This document shows positions 8,503 through 27,747 of a stretch of DNA of 64,000 bases, in pieces. Positions within the stretch are counted from its first letter, which is position 1, and each line of letters starts with the position of its first letter. The position numbers and the translations under genes were made by a program. Below the pieces are notes generated by a model that was given only the letters and a program-made list of their open reading frames with translations, did no database searches and was not told where the DNA came from. The DNA comes from Betaproteobacteria bacterium (lineage in GTDB: Bacteria; Pseudomonadota; Gammaproteobacteria; Burkholderiales; SG8-39): assembly GCA_947478805.1 (NCBI GenBank), contig CANJXQ010000008.1, positions 538 through 64,537 on the forward strand, in the 5' to 3' direction.

Positions 8503-9687
8503 TCAGGCGGGGACTGTTTCGCGCTTGATTCCTGCATCAGCAGCCAGGGCCGATGCCTTATCCATGTTCTCCCACGTAAATTCCGGCTCGTCGCGGCCGA
8601 AATGGCCGTAGGAGGCGGTTTTCTCGTAGATCGGACGCAGCAGGTCGAGCATCTGGATGATGCCCTTGGGTCGCAGATCAAAGTGCTTTTGCACGATCTC
8701 GGACAGTTTCTCGTCGGAAACCTTGCCGGTGCCGAAAGTCGTGACCATGACACTGGTCGGCTTGGCAACGCCGATGGCATAGGACACCTGGATCTGGCAG
8801 CGGCTGGCGAGACCGGCGGCAACCACGTTCTTCGCGACATAGCGCGCCGCATAGGCTGCCGAGCGGTCCACCTTCGTCGGATCCTTGCCGGAGAAGGCGC
8901 CGCCGCCATGCGGGGCGGAGCCCCCATAGGTATCGACGATGATCTTGCGGCCCGTCAGGCCGCAATCGCCCTTGGGGCCGCCGATTTCGAATGCCCCCGT
9001 CGGATTCACGAGATAGTTGATCTTGCCCTTGACGAGGTTCTTCGGCAGCACGGGCTTGATGACCTGCTCGATGATGGCCTCTTCAATTTGCTTGTGCGTT
9101 ACACCGGGCCGATGTTGCGTCGACAGAACCACGGTATCGATGGCATCGGGCTTGCCATCCACGTAGCGAATCGTGACCTGCGACTTGGCATCCGGGCGCA
9201 ACCACGGCAGGCGCCCGTCGCGACGCAGCTCCGACTGGCGCTCCACCAGCCGATGCGACAACCAGATGGGAAGCGGCATGTACTGTGGCGTTTCATCGCA
9301 CGCATAGCCGAACATCAGGCCCTGGTCGCCAGCGCCCTGGTCGAGGTCGAGTCCCTTGCCTTCGTCCACGCCCTGGGCGATGTCCTGCGACTGTTCGCCG
9401 TAGGCAACGATGACGGTGCAGGTGTTGGTATCGAATCCGATGGCCGGGTCGGTGTAACCGATACGCTTGATGGTCCGGCGCGCGACGTCGTCGAAATTCA
9501 CCTTCGCACCGGTGGTGATTTCGCCCGCGAGCACGACGAGATTGTCCTTCACCAGCGTCTCGGCCGCGACTCGGGAGCGCTTGTCCTGGGCTAGAATCGC
9601 ATCAAGGATTGCGTCGGAAATTTGATCCGCAACCTTGTCCGGATGGCCTTCGGAGACGGACTCGGAAGTAAACAGGAAGCTCGACAT
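8503..9687 (-). CDS. metK: S-adenosylmethionine synthetase
   Basis: [42 protein letters not shown]. Confidence 0.97.
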
Positions 9688-15730: not shown

Positions 15731-16981
15731 ATGAACGAACAGGCGCCGGCGACGGGCGCTGGCAGCCACAAGCGCGGAGCAGGCCCGCAGCTCTTCCTCA
15801 AGCCGGCGCGAGAGCGCTCGCTGCGACGCCTGCATCCTTGGGTGTTCTCCGGTGCGATCGACCGCCTGGAGGGCGCAGCCGGATCCGGCGACACGGTGTG
15901 CGTGCGCGCCGCCGACGGGACCTTCCTGGCATGGGCGGCGTACAGTCCGGTATCGCAGATTCGCGCCCGCGTGTGGAGCTTTTCCGAAGCCGAGCGGCCC
16001 GATGAGAATCTGTTGCGCGCGCGGATTGCGGCGGCGATCGCTCGCCGCCAATCCGTCGCGGGTGACATGAACGCGCTGCGTCTAGTGCATGCGGAATCCG
16101 ACGCGTTGCCGGGCGTGGTTGCCGACAGATATGGCGACACGCTGGTCGTACAGCTGACTTCGGCCGGGGCCGAGCGCTGGCGTAATGTCATCGTCGAGAG
16201 CTTGCGCGAGGCCAGCGGGTGCAAGCTGCTGTTCGAGCGCTCCGATGGTGACGTGAGGGCACTGGAGGGGCTGGCCAGCCGCGTCGGCGTGCTGAACGGA
16301 GTGGCGCCAACCGTGGCAGAGACGAATCCCGATGCAATCGAGATCCGGGAGAATGGCATCCGCTATCTGGTTGATATCGGCGCAGGGCAGAAGACGGGGT
16401 TCTTCCTGGATCAGCGCGATAACCGTGCCAGCATTGCCGCCCTGGCGAGGGACCGCGAGGTGCTGAATTGCTTCTGTTATACGGGCGGGTTCACATTGTC
16501 TGCGCTGGCCGGCGGCGCCGCTTCGGTGCTGTCTGTGGACAGTTCTGCTCCGGCGCTCGCGCTGGCGCGGCGGAACTTGGCGCTGAACGCGCTGGATGCC
16601 GCGCGCAGCCATTGGGTGGAAGCTGATGTCTTTTCGATTCTGCGTGACCTGGGGCGCGAACGGCGGACATTTGACCTGATCATTCTCGATCCACCCAAGT
16701 TTGCGCCCACTTCGCGCGATGCGGAGCGCGCCGCACGGGGCTACAAGGACATCAACCTGAACGCCCTGAAATTGCTGCGCCCGGGCGGGTATTTGGCGAC
16801 GTTTTCCTGCTCGAGCGGTGTCAGCGCGGATCTTTTCCAGAAAATCGTTGCCGGCGCGGCTGCTGACGCGGGGGCGTCGTGTGCCATCGAGCAACGTTTT
16901 CACGCTGCGGCCGACCACCCGGTCATGCTGGAATTTCCGGAGGGTGAGTACCTGAAGGGGCTGTTGCTCCGGAAGCGCTAG
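15731..16981 (+). CDS. rlmI: RlmI-like 23S rRNA m5C methyltransferase
   Basis: HPWVFSGAI PUA domain, GQKTGFFLDQRDNR, LNCFCYTGGF, IILDPPKF, FPEGEYLKG. Confidence 0.88.
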   Translation: MNEQAPATGAGSHKRGAGPQLFLKPARERSLRRLHPWVFSGAIDRLEGAAGSGDTVCVRAADGTFLAWAAYSPVSQIRARVWSFSEAERPDENLLRARIAAAIARRQSVAGDMNALRLVHAESDALPGVVADRYGDTLVVQLTSAGAERWRNVIVESLREASGCKLLFERSDGDVRALEGLASRVGVLNGVAPTVAETNPDAIEIRENGIRYLVDIGAGQKTGFFLDQRDNRASIAALARDREVLNCFCYTGGFTLSALAGGAASVLSVDSSAPALALARRNLALNALDAARSHWVEADVFSILRDLGRERRTFDLIILDPPKFAPTSRDAERAARGYKDINLNALKLLRPGGYLATFSCSSGVSADLFQKIVAGAAADAGASCAIEQRFHAAADHPVMLEFPEGEYLKGLLLRKR

Positions 16982-17211
16982 GCCAGAGGATGTTGGCGCT
17001 TTTCAGGCGGTCAAATAATCCGAGGGTGGCGTCAAAGCTCTGAGCGTGTTCTAATGCCGCCCTTTTGGGGAATCCCCTGGGCGGCCTGGCGACGAAGCAG
17101 GTTGCCTCCGGCGACGAACGATCGCCGAAGCGTGTGGCCGAAGCTTGTCGCCGAACTGCGACAAGTGAAAAGTGGACGCATTCCCTCGGTATCAGAAAAC
17201 GTTGAATGTAA

Positions 17212-18197
<986 letters not shown>

Positions 18198-18216
<19 letters not shown>

Positions 18217-18665
18217 CAAAGAAGTCCGATACGGTAGCCAAGAAAGTTGAGCCGGGAGCAAGCCTCACGGAGGCGGCACTTCGCAAGATGCCGGTGTCGC
18301 AGTACATGAACGAGCAGCAGCTGGCATTTTTTCGTGAAAAGCTCATCGCCATGCGCAATGAGCTCCTCGAAAATGCCGGTAGCACCTCCGAGCACCTGCG
18401 CGAACATACCGCCGAGCCCGATCCCGCCGACCAGGCGACGATCGAGGAGGAAAATGCGCTGGAATTGCGCGCGCGCGATCGCGAGCGCAAGCTCCTGAAG
18501 AAGATCGAGGAAGCGCTGCGCCGCATCGATGACGAGTCCTATGGCTTCTGCGAGGAGACTGGCGACCCCATCGGCATACCTCGCCTCCTGGCGCGCCCGA
18601 CGGCCACGTTGACCATCGACGCCCAGACGCGTCGTGAGCAGCGACAGAAGCTGTACGGCGACTGA
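18198..18665 (+). CDS. dksA: RNA polymerase-binding factor DksA (single-Cys type)
   Basis: DPADQA coiled-coil tip, RDRERKLLKKI, YGFCEETGDPIGIPRLLARPTA. Confidence 0.93.
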
Positions 18666-18711
18666 TCCGATCGCGGCTTCGGGACCTGGAGTTACCGAAA
18701 ACCGCCCGCGC

Positions 18712-19047
18712 ATGAAACGCCTGCGCCACTTGCTCAGCCTGGTCCTGGCCGCAGCCCTCATTGCGGGGCAGTGGGCGGGCCAGTTGCATGCGTTGTCCCA
18801 CGCCGAGTACGACCTTGCCATTGCAGGCCAGGCCAAGACTGGCGGCGACAGTCCCGCGCCGCTGGACCATGCACGCGACCGCTGTGTGGCATTCCATGCG
18901 GTCGACTGCGCGCTGAGCGCGCCACCACTGGCGTTTGTCGGTACCGATCCTGCCGTCACGCTGGTCATCCAGCCCGGACTGCCGCTGCGGGCGGCCAAGC
19001 ACACCGCCTATTCCTCCCGCGCCCCACCTGTTCTCCACGTGAGCTGA
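18712..19047 (+). CDS. Small His-rich, DUF2946-like leader protein ending in an RAPP motif
   Basis: Signal/TM-like N-terminus (MKRLRHLLSLVLAAALIAG), HALSH, HARDRCVAFHAVDC, C-terminal YSSRAPPVLHVS. Confidence 0.75.
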   Translation: MKRLRHLLSLVLAAALIAGQWAGQLHALSHAEYDLAIAGQAKTGGDSPAPLDHARDRCVAFHAVDCALSAPPLAFVGTDPAVTLVIQPGLPLRAAKHTAYSSRAPPVLHVS

Positions 19048-19125
19048 ACCGCACTGCGGCATCGCACGATGCCGCGTCGTTCGCGAGCGCGCATTGCGCT
19101 CGCATGCCACGCATGGAGAGCCATC

Positions 19126-20565
19126 ATGTTTCGATCCAGCAATCGGGCGCCGGCCATTGCCGCGCTGACCGCAAGCCTGTTTTTCTCTATGGCGCAAGAC
19201 GCCTGCGCCGCCAGCGACGACGACCTGAAAGAACTGCGTGAGCAGGTCCGACAGTTGAAGGACCTCTACGAAAAAAAGATCAACGAACTGGAAGCCCGGC
19301 TGAAGCAGGCAGAACAGACCGCTGGTCAGGCCAAGTCTTCCGCGACTGCCGCGCAAACAACGGCCGAACAGGCTGCGGTGCAGGCGAGCAGCCGCACTGC
19401 CGGCGAGGGCGCATTCAACCCCGGCATCTCGGCAATCCTTAATGGCGTCTACGGCAACTTGTCGCAGAACCCCTCCAATTACCGCATCAACGGGTTTGCG
19501 CCAACGATGGGCGAAGTTGCGCCACCCAATCGCGGCCTGGGCCTGGGTGAGTCCGAAATCGCCTTCTCGGCCAACATCGATCGCCACTTTCGCGGCACCC
19601 TGATCGCCGCGCTGTCGCCCGAGGATACCGTCAGCGTCGAGGAGGCACACATCCAGACGCTGGGGCTGTCCAATGGATTCACGCTCAAGGCGGGCCGATT
19701 CTTTTCCGGGGTCGGCTATCACAACGAGATTCACGCTCACGCGTGGGACTTCACTGATGCGCCGCTGGCCAACAAGGTATTCCTCGGCAACCAACTGGCT
19801 GAAGACGGCTTCCAGGTCAAGTGGATCGCGCCCACCGACCTGTATGCCAACATCGGATTGGAGTTCGGGCGTGGCCGCAAGTTTCCGGGCGGGCCGGATG
19901 GCGGGCGCATGAAGAACGGCTTCGGTTCGACCAACCTGTTTGCCCACCTGGGCGGTGATTGGGGGACGGGTGCTGCATGGCGGGTGGGACTCTCCCACTT
20001 GCGCACCCGGGTGCACGACCGCGCGTTCAACGATGTCGATTCGACGGGGACCGGTGTGACCAATACCATCGGCGCTGCGAGCCGCCTTTGGGTCCTTGAC
20101 GGCGTGCTGAAATGGGCGCCCAACGGCAATGCGTCCAACACCAGTTTCAAGCTGCAGGGCGAATACTTCCGTCGCACCGAAGACGGGCAGCTGAGTTATG
20201 ACACGACAGCGGCGTCGCTGGGAACGCAGTCCGGTTCCTACCTGTCGAAGCAATCCGGCTGGTATCTGCAGGGCGTTTACCAGTTTCAGCCAGAGTGGCG
20301 CGTGGGTTATCGCTACGACCGGCTCGATTCCGGCACAACCGGCCTCGGACTGGTGGCCAATGGCCCGCTCACAGCTGCAGATTTTCCGATTCTGGCCAGC
20401 TACAAGCCGATACGGAACACCATGATGCTCGACTGGAGCGCCAGCGAATTCAGCCGTGTCAGGCTGCAGTTCGCCCGCGACCGGGCGCGTGCGGGGATCG
20501 CGGACAACCAGTTCTTCCTCCAATACATCATCAGCATGGGCGCGCATGGCGGCCACAAGTTCTGA
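19126..20565 (+). CDS. Outer-membrane beta-barrel/porin of a metal-uptake cassette
   Basis: Signal peptide, N-terminal coiled coil, amphipathic strands, HAHAWDF, C-terminal GAHGGHKF with terminal Phe; SD GGAGAG upstream. Confidence 0.75.
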   Translation: MFRSSNRAPAIAALTASLFFSMAQDACAASDDDLKELREQVRQLKDLYEKKINELEARLKQAEQTAGQAKSSATAAQTTAEQAAVQASSRTAGEGAFNPGISAILNGVYGNLSQNPSNYRINGFAPTMGEVAPPNRGLGLGESEIAFSANIDRHFRGTLIAALSPEDTVSVEEAHIQTLGLSNGFTLKAGRFFSGVGYHNEIHAHAWDFTDAPLANKVFLGNQLAEDGFQVKWIAPTDLYANIGLEFGRGRKFPGGPDGGRMKNGFGSTNLFAHLGGDWGTGAAWRVGLSHLRTRVHDRAFNDVDSTGTGVTNTIGAASRLWVLDGVLKWAPNGNASNTSFKLQGEYFRRTEDGQLSYDTTAASLGTQSGSYLSKQSGWYLQGVYQFQPEWRVGYRYDRLDSGTTGLGLVANGPLTAADFPILASYKPIRNTMMLDWSASEFSRVRLQFARDRARAGIADNQFFLQYIISMGAHGGHKF

Positions 20566-20575
20566 GGAGCAGACC

Positions 20576-21499
20576 ATGAAAAAAATATTCATCGTGATGG
20601 CAGGAACCCTGGCCGCAATGATGGCGGCGGCCTCGGCTGGCGCGGCGATCAATGTGTTTGCCTGCGAGCCCGAATGGGCCGCACTGGCGCAGGAAATCGG
20701 CGGTGACCGGGTCAACACAACTTCCGCGACCACGGCGCTGCAGGACCCGCATCGCGTCGAGGCGCGACCAAGCCTGATTGCGCGCGTGCGCAATGCCGAT
20801 CTTGTTGTCTGCACGGGAGCGGAACTGGAGATCGGCTGGCTGCCTCTGCTGCTGAACCAGTCGGGCAATGCCAAGGTGCAGCCTGGCAGGCCGGGAAATT
20901 TCGAGGCGGCGCAGTATGTGTCTCGTCTTGAAATACCAAAAGTGCTCGATCGTGCGCTGGGCGACATCCATCCGGGGGGCAATCCGCATATCCAGACCGA
21001 TCCGCGCAACATCGCCAAGGTGGCCGAGGCGCTGATTGCTCGGCTCGCACAAATCGATGCCCCGGGTGCCGAGTCCTATCGTTCCCGCGGCAAGGCTTTT
21101 CTCGAGCGCTGGCAGGCAGCCATCGTGCGTTGGGAGCAGCAGGCCGCACCGCTCCGGGGCCTCCCGGTGGTGGTGCATCACAAGGCCTGGACCTATCTCG
21201 AAGCGTGGCTCGGCCTGAGGGAGGTCGCCACGCTCGAGCATCAGCCCGGCGTTCCTCCCACCCCGTCCCACCTGGCCGAGTTGGTGGAGGGCATGCGCCG
21301 GGAGCCGGCAAAGTTCATTGTCTACTCTGCCTACAACGATCCGAAAGCGGCGGGTTTCCTGTCGCAGCGCACGGGTGTGCCTGCGGTGCTGCTGCCGTTC
21401 ACGGTTGGCGGAACGGAGGGCGCCCGGGACCTGTTCAGCTTGTTCGATGACACGCTGTCCCGGCTGCTATCCGCCGCGCAGGGCAAGGGCTCCAAATGA
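20576..21499 (+). CDS. Zn/Mn ABC-type substrate-binding protein (ZnuA family)
   Basis: Signal peptide, QDPH, GAELEIGWL, HPGGNPH, VVHH, EHQPGVPPT; SD GAGGAG. Confidence 0.9.
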   Translation: MKKIFIVMAGTLAAMMAAASAGAAINVFACEPEWAALAQEIGGDRVNTTSATTALQDPHRVEARPSLIARVRNADLVVCTGAELEIGWLPLLLNQSGNAKVQPGRPGNFEAAQYVSRLEIPKVLDRALGDIHPGGNPHIQTDPRNIAKVAEALIARLAQIDAPGAESYRSRGKAFLERWQAAIVRWEQQAAPLRGLPVVVHHKAWTYLEAWLGLREVATLEHQPGVPPTPSHLAELVEGMRREPAKFIVYSAYNDPKAAGFLSQRTGVPAVLLPFTVGGTEGARDLFSLFDDTLSRLLSAAQGKGSK

Positions 21500-22251
21500 A
21501 CTTCGATTCGGCGAGCCTGGCTATTTTGTTGCCCGCGTTGGCAGCTGGACTGCTGGTGACCCTGGCGCTGGTGCCGCTCGGGCTGCAGGTCTTGTCGCGC
21601 GGCATCGTGTTCATCGACTTGGCCGTCGCCCAGATTGCGGGTCTGGGTGTCATCGTCGCCGATGCGCTCGGATGGGAGCCGCAGGGGGTTGCGGTGCAAG
21701 TCGCTGCCTTGGCGGCGGCGCTGGCCGGAGCGCTGTTCCTCACTTGGACCGAACGCCGTTGGCCGGAGGTACAGGAGGCGATCATCGGCGTCGTTTTCGC
21801 GCTCGCGGCGAGTGTTGCGTTGCTCCTCCTAGCGGGAAATCCACATGGCGGCGAGCACCTGAAGGACCTCCTGGTGGGACAGATCCTGTGGGTGGATCCG
21901 ACGCGACTGGCGGTGGAGGCGATCGCCTATGTGGCGATCACGGCGATATGGTTTGCTTTTCGCGAGAGGCTGGGCCGCACCGGTTTTTACCTGCTGTTCG
22001 CATGCGCCGTGACGCTTTCCGTGCAGCAAGTCGGCCTTTACCTCGTGTTCGCGACCTTGATCGTTCCCGCGCTGGCGACCTACTACGCGGGATCGCGGCG
22101 CATCCTCAAGGCGTATGGGGTTGCCGCGGCTGGATATGCCTCGGGACTGTGGGCCTCGGCGTGGTTCGACCTGCCGTCAGGGGCGTTGATCGTCTGCACC
22201 ATGGCGGTGGCGGGCGTGCTATGGGCGTTGGCGCCGTCGCAAAGTCGCTAG
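21496..22251 (+). CDS. Metal ABC-type permease (ZnuB/ABC-3 family)
   Basis: RGIVFIDLAVAQIAGLG, EAIIG, LVFATLIVPA, DLPSGALIV; ATGA overlap with the binding-protein gene. Confidence 0.88.
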   Translation: MNFDSASLAILLPALAAGLLVTLALVPLGLQVLSRGIVFIDLAVAQIAGLGVIVADALGWEPQGVAVQVAALAAALAGALFLTWTERRWPEVQEAIIGVVFALAASVALLLLAGNPHGGEHLKDLLVGQILWVDPTRLAVEAIAYVAITAIWFAFRERLGRTGFYLLFACAVTLSVQQVGLYLVFATLIVPALATYYAGSRRILKAYGVAAAGYASGLWASAWFDLPSGALIVCTMAVAGVLWALAPSQSR

Positions 22252-22257
22252 GCCGCT

Positions 22258-22286
22258 CTTGAAATGGAATGACGGCGCCCCGATCT
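22258..22286 (+). promoter_or_regulatory. Sigma-32-type heat-shock promoter for hslVU
   Basis: CTTGAA-N14-CCCCGATCT, close to the CTTGAA...CCCCAT consensus. Confidence 0.65.
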
Positions 22287-26785: not shown

Positions 26786-27166
26786 ATGCGCAACAAGGCC
26801 ATTTTGTCGCCACTTACTGCCTGGCTGGCGATCTTCGCCATGGCGCTCAATGCGCTGTGGCCGCTGATCGCCAATGCGCGCCCGGCGGGCGTTGCGTGGT
26901 CAATGGAGGTCTGCACCACCGAGGGCATGCGGTCAGTCTCGGGAGACCCAAACCGGGCGCCGGACGATTCGGTCGCCAAGTACCTGCAATCGCACTGTCC
27001 CCTGTGTTCTTTCGGGACCGACAAGCTCTGTGCCTTGCCCTCGGCGCCTTCGTTTCTTGAATCCGGTCAGACAGGCTGTGGCTCGACCGCAGAATTTCCA
27101 TCTGAGCTCCCCCGCAACGATATCCACTTTCCGGCGCACCCTCGCGCGCCGCCGGTCAATTCCTGA
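26786..27166 (+). CDS. DUF2946 family (CruR/CutF-like) leader protein
   Basis: TM/signal AWLAIFAMALNALWP, EVCTTEG, HCPLC, C-terminal HPRAPP. Confidence 0.85.
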   Translation: MRNKAILSPLTAWLAIFAMALNALWPLIANARPAGVAWSMEVCTTEGMRSVSGDPNRAPDDSVAKYLQSHCPLCSFGTDKLCALPSAPSFLESGQTGCGSTAEFPSELPRNDIHFPAHPRAPPVNS

Positions 27167-27255
27167 TCTGCAGTTCTGGAGGAGGTGCAAATGCACTTCC
27201 AATTGATGCGCGTGTTTTGCAAGTGCGCGCAGGATTCGGACAAGGAATATTCAAG

Positions 27256-27747
27256 ATGATTTTCAAAGCAATGGCCTTTGCCACAGTAGTATTCACGACG
27301 TTCTCGGTGCAGGCCCACGATTACAAGGTGGGTGATCTGCAAATCGGTCACCCCTACTCCCGCACGACTCCGCCCGGCGCAACCACCGCCGGCGCGTACT
27401 TGAGCATCGACAACAAGGGCAAGGCCGCGGACAAGCTGTTGCGTGCTTCCAGCCCAGCGGCGGGACTGGTCGAGCTGCATTCCATGAGCATGGACGGCAA
27501 TGTCATGCGCATGCGCGCGGTGCCGGCAATCGATGTCGCGCCGGGAGCAACGGTCAAGCTTGCGCCCGGCGGACTGCATGTCATGTTGCAGGAACTCAAG
27601 CGCCCGCTCAAGAAGGACGAGCGCGTGCCACTGACGCTGGTGTTCCAGCGTGCCGGCGAAGTGAAGGTTGAACTGGCGGTGCAGGACGCCGTCGCTGCCG
27701 CGTCGGGGCACGACGCGCATGCGGGGCACGGCACGGACAAGAAATAG
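27256..27747 (+). CDS. Periplasmic copper chaperone PCu(A)C
   Basis: Signal peptide, HPYSRTTPPG, ELHSM...VMRMR, LAPGGLHVML, His-rich tail. Confidence 0.92.
   Translation: MIFKAMAFATVVFTTFSVQAHDYKVGDLQIGHPYSRTTPPGATTAGAYLSIDNKGKAADKLLRASSPAAGLVELHSMSMDGNVMRMRAVPAIDVAPGATVKLAPGGLHVMLQELKRPLKKDERVPLTLVFQRAGEVKVELAVQDAVAAASGHDAHAGHGTDKK

Follow-up and report, generated by a model that had tools for sequence, protein, structure and literature searches.

We describe here an open reading frame (ORF) of 111 codons that precedes a set of metal-uptake genes in a 64,000-nucleotide stretch of a Betaproteobacteria bacterium (assembly GCA_947478805.1, contig CANJXQ010000008.1; this whole stretch is called the window, and all coordinates refer to it), and which is probably a regulatory leader of the CruR/CutF class. 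In the mechanism that we propose, a ribosome pausing at the Arg-Ala-Pro-Pro (RAPP) motif close to the end of the leader would unmask the Shine-Dalgarno (SD) sequence of the next gene, which encodes a porin-like protein, and the length of the pause would be set by a metal, most likely Zn(II). From the conservation of the leader, the geometry of its motifs, a covarying helix between its last codons and the SD, and the gene context, we infer stalling, export, the metal and the direction of the response.

Results

Sequence and conservation of the leader

A first-pass annotation of the window had pointed out the export-like N-terminus of the ORF, the peptide HALSH and a C-terminal RAPP, all of which were found again at 18712-19047. 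The reading frame is open from 18613 and runs from ATG 18712 to TGA 19045-19047, and the ORF list carries it in a longer form of 137 amino acids that begins at a GTG (18634-19047). By eye, the N-terminus has a KRLR n-region, a 13-residue hydrophobic core and AxA-like sites, and H26-A-L-S-H30 is encoded at 18787-18801; AlphaFold2 (AF2) models a helix over residues 2-43, with a predicted local distance difference test (pLDDT) score of about 95, and a second helix over residues 55-68. Further along, D52-H53-A-R55-D56-R57-C58 (H53, 18868-18870; C58, TGT at 18883-18885) is followed by F-H62-A-V-D65-C66. CxxC is absent from the ORF, which reads R55-D-R-C58 instead, and the earlier statement that the first Cys is replaced by Arg (CGC) holds for R55 when judged against the canonical DUF2946 protein that is also encoded in the window. 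Two other descriptions were too generous, since 'His-rich' is modest (7 His in 111 residues) and the 'Pro-rich' spacer contains only 5 Pro in 44. RAPP is followed by V-L-H-V-S and the stop, five codons from the end. A comparison of the window with its 96%-identical relative gave codon changes that were synonymous in 4 cases and non-synonymous in 4, numbers too small to interpret. An open frame of 891 codons lies antisense to the whole leader/porin region (18343-21018, minus strand) and is probably an artefact of high GC content.

The leader is a real and conserved gene, beyond what chance would produce. Twenty homologs with identities of 36-99% were collected, matches were present in 14 of 41 related genomes and in 50 of 401 genomes sampled from the order (a tally that includes the genome G397, used nowhere else in the analysis), scans of genome contigs and of metagenome contigs gave four loci each, and an exhaustive search returned 442 cluster representatives at E<=1e-3. 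We examined 168 sequences, 158 of which carry RAPP or RGPP with a Cys 43-47 residues upstream. Among these motif-bearing sequences, 70 have the CxxC form and 88 a single Cys, preceded in 84 of the 88 by a His at -5 (H-x4-C, as in the window); a whole sub-clade has thus stably lost CxxC, and the window does not simply show an isolated mutation. In 157 of the 158 the N-terminal hydrophobic segment closes with an H-x3-H motif, and the tail after RAPP has 3 residues in 96 and 4 residues in 35.

Conservation per residue was followed in 71 aligned single-Cys members. C58, R103, P105 and P106 are invariant, and H26, H30 and H53 are each kept in 70 of the 71, which bears out the conservation of His, Cys and RAPP that the first-pass annotation had set as a check. 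A104 is present in 64 and replaced by Gly in the other seven, and the acidic positions are less constant (D52 in 39/71, D/E56 in 55/71). The spacer between C58 and R103 measures 44 residues in 65 sequences and 45 in six, and aligns free of gaps, yet no other segment upstream of RAPP is less conserved in sequence (mean top-residue frequency 0.28; 0.26 in the post-RAPP tail), whereas the distance between H30 and H53 ranges from 10 to 54. Conservation in the leader is confined to S-R-A-P-P, the putative ligand motif and the last part of the signal. A spacer of fixed length and variable sequence, together with a free H30-H53 distance, is the pattern of a ruler and not of a folded domain, and this pattern of residues fits a nascent-chain device.

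The same pattern bears on two other ways of understanding the ORF. Its product could be a stable small accessory protein of the periplasm or membrane that binds metal, with RAPP being incidental; the ligand residues are indeed conserved and AF2 gives a confident helix-loop-helix over residues 1-68, but residues 67-98 are poorly conserved and still fixed in length, covariation links the last codons of the leader to the next SD (see below), bacterial proteomes are described as strongly depleted of RAPP-like sequences, which cluster close to the C-terminal ends of small proteins (PMC12992588), and the CruR and CutF proteins are reported as undetectable in vivo (PMC9426467, PMC9973294), all of which makes this explanation extremely improbable. 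Little more credit can be given to a metal-independent device, in which the RAPP pause would monitor export capacity or couple the porin to translation of the leader. This is how the RAPP leaders ApdA, ApdP and SecM are reported to monitor Sec (PMC7897499, PMC10951233), and all the proteins encoded downstream are exported; however, C58, at its fixed distance from RAPP, never varies in the alignment and H26, H30 and H53 hardly do, and the downstream genes are for metal uptake and not for Sec or YidC components.

Predicted pairing between the leader tail and the downstream Shine-Dalgarno sequence

A covarying helix between an anti-SD sequence in the tail of the leader and the SD of the next gene goes beyond what the first-pass annotation described and gives the leader a concrete output. 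In the minimum free energy (MFE) fold, the codons right after RAPP (19030-19041) pair with 19106-19121, including the SD at 19115-19120; both stretches that were folded, 18990-19140 and 19015-19135, gave one dominant structure (z -3.1 and -3.3). The leader has what a CutF-type output requires, namely a predicted helix that would hide the next SD within reach of a stalled ribosome. At the near-identical locus L018, G19120 is replaced by A, which turns a G-U pair into A-U.

The pairing was analysed in 34 loci, comprising the window, five relatives from the genus or family and 28 from the order (L042 and L018 were left out), with the tail taken from the end of the Pro-Pro codons to 3 nucleotides (nt) past the stop and the target as -20 to +3 of the next gene. 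Compared with equal-length windows taken from the same upstream ORF (uORF), the tail-SD duplex falls within the best 5% in 23 of the 34 loci and within the best 10% in 27. In the MFE structure, at least four bases of the SD window are paired with the tail in 30 of the 34, against 12.9 expected when the tail is permuted. Cognate tail/SD duplexes average -12.95 kcal/mol and non-cognate ones -7.87, and none of 20,000 permutations was as low. The covariation is visible in pairs such as GTTCCT/AGGAAC, TTCCCTT/AAGGGAA, CTCGTC/GACGAG and TCCTCTG/CAGAGGA, and further matches between a tail and its own SD are TATTCCTC/GAGGAATA and CTCGCTTAA/TTAAGCGAG, the latter running through the stop codon. The gene after the leader encodes a porin-like barrel in 27 of the loci, a TonB-dependent receptor in six and a CarboxypepD_reg-domain protein in one, and the tail/SD design is present whichever of them follows. 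In L024 and L026, which belong to the same family or genus as the window, cobW, dksA and the leader are followed by a TonB-dependent receptor gene, with the tail/SD pairing kept. The leader module appears to be portable between outer-membrane uptake genes.

Several observations weigh against this interpretation or reduce its force. Tail composition alone produced pairing in 38% of the permutations; given the 30 of 34 against 12.9, composition contributes to the pairing and does not explain it. The predicted pairing is missing at four of the 34 loci (L021, L050, L053 and L054), and RNAalifold found 0 pairs across 16 loci aligned with MAFFT, because the SD regions were out of register in that alignment. 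The downstream start codons were chosen partly by their SD-like motif, and the loci are kin, so that the counts overstate their independence. Finally, no obvious SD precedes the leader itself.

The helix also bears on the possibility that the main output is of the CruR type, with the stalled ribosome blocking Rho-dependent termination and SD unmasking being secondary. The 3' end of the leader is richer in C than in G (GC skew of -0.21 to -0.25 over 18940-19059), this is the mode reported for CruR (PMC9426467), and the two outputs are not exclusive. Yet the intergenic region between leader and porin is 78 nt long, against 162 in CruR, it is the covarying tail-SD helix that selection can be seen to maintain, and a simple scan found no terminator-like site in this region, the hairpins nested in the helix not being called; three terminator-like matches over 16900-19300 all lie outside it and do not exceed shuffles. 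A primarily Rho-dependent output thus seems improbable, and unmasking of the SD the better account, although Rho may contribute. The elements of the leader and the genes around it are listed in Table 1.

Table 1. Position and supporting evidence of the leader, its parts and the surrounding genes in the window
Feature	Coordinates	Strand	Evidence
Leader ORF, 111 codons, divergent DUF2946/CutF/CruR-like	18712..19047	+	ORF list, homologs, alignments
Export signal or signal-anchor ending Q20-W21...H26-x3-H30 (predicted)	18712..18804	+	Sequence reading, AF2 helix 2-43
D52-H53-x2-D56-x-C58 putative ligand motif in place of CxxC	18865..18885	+	Alignment of 71 sequences
44-residue spacer, length fixed, sequence variable	18886..19017	+	Alignment of 71 sequences
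RAPP arrest motif (predicted)	19018..19029	+	R103, P105, P106 in 71/71
Post-RAPP tail and stop codon; anti-SD arm 19030-19041	19030..19047	+	MFE structures, tail-SD statistics
Two GC-rich hairpins nested in the helix, 19056-19063/19068-19075 and 19083-19090/19096-19103	19056..19103	+	MFE folds
3' arm of the helix, including SD GGAGAG 19115-19120	19106..19121	+	MFE folds
Porin-like outer-membrane barrel, N-terminal coiled coil, conserved His motifs, no Pfam family	19126..20565	+	AF2, Foldseek, alignment
ZnuA-type (cluster A-I) binding protein, invariant H59, H138, H202	20576..21499	+	PF01297 E 7e-43; alignment
ABC-3 permease, 4-nt overlap with binding-protein gene	21496..22251	+	PF00950 E 4e-22
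COG0523/CobW-type GTPase, GCICC motif, first gene of probable operon	17212..18216	+	PF02492 E 1.5e-57, PF07683 E 4.6e-24
DksA paralog (DksA2-like), 1/4 zinc-finger Cys	18198..18665	+	TIGR02420 145 bits
Canonical DUF2946 leader (CPLC, RAPP, 45-residue spacer)	26786-27166	+	PF11162 E 9e-12

Genes downstream and upstream of the leader

The leader lies directly upstream of the porin, ZnuA-like and ZnuB-like genes, as had been stated, although the porin gene most likely starts at 19126 and not at 19069. From this ATG, which stands behind the SD, a protein of 479 amino acids with a signal peptide is encoded. Its AF2 model (pLDDT 57) contains about 16 strands besides a signal helix and a long coiled coil, and the PDB matches listed by Foldseek are all outer-membrane barrels (OprB, OprO/OprP, OmpT, AlgE) with TM-scores of at most 0.39; with such low values, the model supports an outer-membrane barrel and nothing finer. 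Searching PDB by sequence gave only coiled-coil noise. The family is very large (7,650 of 8,000 scored candidates at E<=1e-10), nearly all of its members being unnamed and 'hypothetical'. In an alignment of 32 sequences H203 and H205 (HAHAWDF) and H474 and H477 (C-terminal GAHGxHKF) are invariant, and these barrels may form a family of metal-selective channels. The binding protein finds AdcA, ZnuA and Lmb in PDB, its best relatives there being zinc binders, and H59, H138 and H202 align with His residues of the zinc-binding AdcA that we take to be zinc ligands. The cassette contains no ATPase gene (ZnuC), with hslV beginning at 22269, 18 nt after the permease stop, and the partner ATPase must therefore be encoded elsewhere or shared.

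The leader had been described as heading the cassette, which is correct for the uptake genes downstream; cobW and dksA precede it, however, with a gap of 46 nt. The arrangement was compared in 14 loci whose leader belongs to the H-x4-C type or, in L080, is truncated by the end of the contig ahead of the motif, namely the window, L018-L024, L026, L027 and L077-L080. The cobW gene is immediately upstream of the leader in all 14, and dksA stands between them in 13 (it is missing in L023). In G010, a genome of the same genus, the first genes of the string encode a ZIP transporter (PF02535) and a Fur-family regulator (PF01475), and a Fur-like C-terminus before cobW was recognized by eye in L019, L020, L021, L026 and L027 and by a tblastn match in L080. 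Relatives G010 and G022 have, elsewhere in the genome, a second and higher-scoring DksA with all four Cys (CxxC...CxxC).

Just upstream of the string, an inverted repeat CTTGTCGC-N6-GCGACAAG at 17144-17165 (plus strand), 47 nt before the start of cobW and kept in L018, may be an operator or a hairpin. Simple scanning of 16900-19300 found no promoter-like sites. In L019 a perfect 12-bp palindrome, TTGTTGCAACAA, accompanied by a second TTGCAAC, lies upstream of the ZIP gene (about 9380-9430), and it is partly present in L020; it may serve as an operator for the Fur-family regulator encoded there. Near the cassette of the window this palindrome has no good match, the window as a whole having fewer matches than expected by chance.

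Relationship to DUF2946

The assignment of the leader to the same kind of exported RAPP peptide as CruR and CutF, already proposed in the first-pass annotation, is supported by matches of its homologs to PF11162 (DUF2946), by its architecture and by the 44-45 residue spacing. Six of the 20 close homologs match PF11162 (best E 1.6e-4), as do eight of ten CxxC-type relatives at E<=1, two of which exceed the cut-off of 23.7 bits (26.3 and 29.9). The leader of the window is more distant: it does not match PF11162 even at E<=10, Pfam and NCBIfam searches assign nothing to it, and hhalign against the canonical DUF2946 protein of the window (P0021) aligns 25 C-terminal columns, at the RAPP end, with a probability of 2.9%. 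These results count against close kinship, and the link of the leader to DUF2946 is transitive only, since its relatives match the model that it misses. The two proteins of the window nevertheless have comparable layouts, with C-P-L-C, a further Cys 8 residues on and RAPP 45 on in the canonical copy, and C58, C66 and RAPP 44 residues on in the leader. The latter lacks the model score, the CxxC or CxxxC and the position as first gene of an operon that are proper to DUF2946, and shares with it a RAPP close to the stop and a Cys-RAPP spacing of about 45 residues. Judging from the sequences, we would regard it as a divergent branch on the margin of DUF2946 that is not a member by the Pfam criterion.

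The canonical leader is followed by a gene for a PCuAC copper chaperone (ATG 27256; whole region 26786-27747, plus strand). Between them, a mini-ORF of 22 codons (27191-27259) stands behind a strong GGAGGAGG, and its stop overlaps the start of the PCuAC gene (ATGA). The intergenic fold of this pair is no better than shuffles (z -0.70), and the tail/SD design is therefore not claimed for all DUF2946 leaders.

Discussion

Our analysis of gene context concerns mainly the identity of the metal. If the leader is a metal sensor, we consider zinc somewhat favoured, since its neighbourhood, as far as it can be read from sequence, is of the zinc type: COG0523, a one-Cys DksA and a three-His ZnuA-type protein in the window, with ZIP and Fur-family genes in relatives, point to this metal. 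This much of the original attribution to zinc stands. It needs one qualification: leaders of the CxxC type stand before the same cassette of porin, binding-protein and permease genes, whose binding protein keeps these three His, so that a change of ligands need not mean a change of metal. Furthermore, cobW was found within about 1.5 kb upstream in none of 22 CxxC-type loci (two of them with less than 700 nt available), the leader in these relatives follows unrelated genes, and at the CxxC-type locus L029 leader and cassette lie between xerC and hslVU with no metal genes nearby. The ligand switch therefore tracks the zinc-gene neighbourhood; it also tracks phylogeny. To these points, which speak against zinc or are neutral, must be added the apparent lack of regulatory partners in this genome, in which no ortholog of the cobW-linked Fur-family gene of relatives was detected, the only two Fur-family genes found being Fur-like and Irr-like, and no canonical four-Cys DksA was found either; with an assembly that is 89.8% complete, neither absence is established. 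Neither a generic Zur consensus nor a degenerate core finds a match around the cassette, and the earlier remark that no Zur/Fur-like box is visible there was borne out by the consensus, degenerate-core and palindrome scans.

A more serious competitor than those considered above is a stalling leader of the same design that responds to copper (or to Ni, Co or Mn), the cassette importing that metal. The family borders DUF2946, whose studied members sense Cu (as reported in PMC9426467 and PMC9973294), CxxC-type relatives head the orthologous cassette, Cu(I) is also bound by His/Cys sites, and the specificity of a binding protein cannot be read from its sequence alone. Nevertheless, CxxC has been lost in 88 of the 158 sequences, with H-x4-C in its place, and the N-terminal H-x3-H in 157 of them would complete a His3Cys or His2Cys2 set; the neighbours are COG0523, a one-Cys DksA, ZIP and Fur-family genes; the binding protein has three His; and the window contains a separate and canonical DUF2946-PCuAC pair for copper. 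On balance copper or another of these metals is unlikely, although it deserves more weight than any other alternative, and zinc is retained as the preferred ligand.

The mechanism that would connect zinc with the cassette can be outlined as follows. The leader would be translated with an N-terminal export signal, and 19030-19041 would act as an anti-SD that is otherwise paired with the SD of the porin-like gene. A stalled ribosome protects roughly 15 nt downstream, so that a ribosome with Pro105 (19024-19026) in the P site would cover 19030-19037 of the anti-SD and pausing would free the SD. While the ribosome remained on RAPP, the anti-SD would be held within the mRNA channel and the porin gene could be translated, probably together with the tightly packed genes for the binding protein and the permease; if the leader were finished quickly, the helix would re-form and the cassette would stay silent. 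The length of the pause would be set by metal bound to H26 and H30, at the periplasmic end of the signal anchor, and to H53 and C58, at the periplasmic mouth of the translocon. A chain of 44-45 residues is about the length that spans the exit tunnel and the SecY channel, and placing H53 and C58 at the translocon mouth by means of this ruler would account for one distance being fixed while the other can vary. Metal binding would then shorten the pause and turn uptake off when zinc is plentiful, which combines the logic of CruR with an RNA output of the CutF type. Metal could release the arrest by pulling force, as in the CruR logic, or prolong it by blocking translocation, as in the CutF logic; we lean slightly towards release, given that the cassette serves import.

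Control of zinc uptake in bacteria is usually ascribed to Zur, acting at the level of transcription. We tentatively propose that the leader could be the first zinc-responsive arrest peptide, in which a His3Cys site (His2Cys2 in the CxxC sisters) formed between the signal anchor and the part of the chain that leaves the translocon, at exactly 44-45 residues from the peptidyl-transferase centre of the stalled ribosome, would report periplasmic zinc directly to that ribosome and gate an outer-membrane channel and an ABC importer. If true, a second and extracytoplasmic layer of zinc homeostasis would exist beside Zur, and a very large and unannotated family of porin-like barrels, with thousands of members, would acquire a function in metal entry. 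The metal-sensing arrest peptides studied so far, CruR and CutF, respond to copper, and a zinc-linked branch would add a second essential metal, a different ligand set, a fixed ruler of 44 residues and a covarying anti-SD element. The leader would also be a natural system in which to follow the forces that metal-induced folding exerts on a stalled ribosome.

As to novelty, the first-pass annotation knew of no characterised example of this variant. No zinc-responsive RAPP leader or arrest peptide was found in the literature searched, and the word 'zinc' is absent from the main text of PMC9426467, PMC9973294, PMC12992588 and preprint 10.1101/2025.02.05.636593, although the cluster lists published in supplements (File S1 and Fig. 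S6 of PMC9973294, Table S1 of PMC9426467) may already include this sub-clade. The idea of a non-copper variant, on the other hand, is not new, such sensors having been proposed among CutF-like proteins, for which 29 clusters with Cys, His or mixed sites are described and His-only clusters next to HupE/UreJ are named as possible sensors of Ni or Co (PMC9973294). Clusters 14 and 17 of that account are a precedent for non-copper leaders based on His; they are His-only and accompany Ni/Co-type HupE/UreJ, whereas the present leader has an invariant Cys and precedes a porin/ZnuA/ABC-3 cassette.

The families found around the leader (ZnuABC, ZupT, COG0523 and DksA2) are those of the zinc-starvation genes regulated by Zur. 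Unlike a Zur-regulated ZnuABC system, this one has no Zur box that we could find and no ZnuC, and it has an extra porin-like gene and a putative translational leader. SecM, ApdA and ApdP resemble the leader in having RAPP or RAGP near the C-terminus of a small protein that is exported or, in the leader, predicted to be, and their arrest is sensitive to pulling force; they regulate Sec components and have no metal ligands, whereas the genes downstream of the leader do not encode localization machinery. Arrest at RAPP or RGPP is reported for CruR, ApdA and ApdP, and in CruR it occurs in vitro with the two Pro codons in the P and A sites (PMC12992588).

The closest parallels are with CruR and CutF themselves. 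CruR (Bordetella pertussis Bp2923) is a DUF2946 uORF upstream of the TonB-dependent transporter BfrG, with a Cys-to-RAPP spacer of 45 (PMC9426467). It shares with the leader an export signal (predicted in the leader), a Cys motif 44-45 residues before RAPP, 3-5 residues between RAPP and the stop, an outer-membrane uptake protein downstream and the expected logic by which plentiful metal turns uptake off. It differs in having CxxC where the leader has H-x4-C plus the N-terminal H-x3-H, in its 162-nt intergenic region with Rho-dependent termination against 78 nt with a tail/SD helix, and in heading its operon and sensing copper, whereas the leader is preceded by cobW and dksA in a zinc context and does not itself reach the Pfam model. 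In CutF of Rhodobacter capsulatus (cutFOG), stalling is described as opening a stem-loop that shields the next SD (PMC9973294, preprint 10.1101/2025.02.05.636593), and the intergenic region is short (<100 nt), as in the leader. However, CutF has CxxxC and turns on a detoxifying multicopper oxidase in the presence of Cu, whereas the leader precedes an importer cassette, for which the opposite sign would be expected, and, unlike in CutF, the anti-SD lies in its own last codons. The leader is thus probably CutF-like in its output and CruR-like in its sign.

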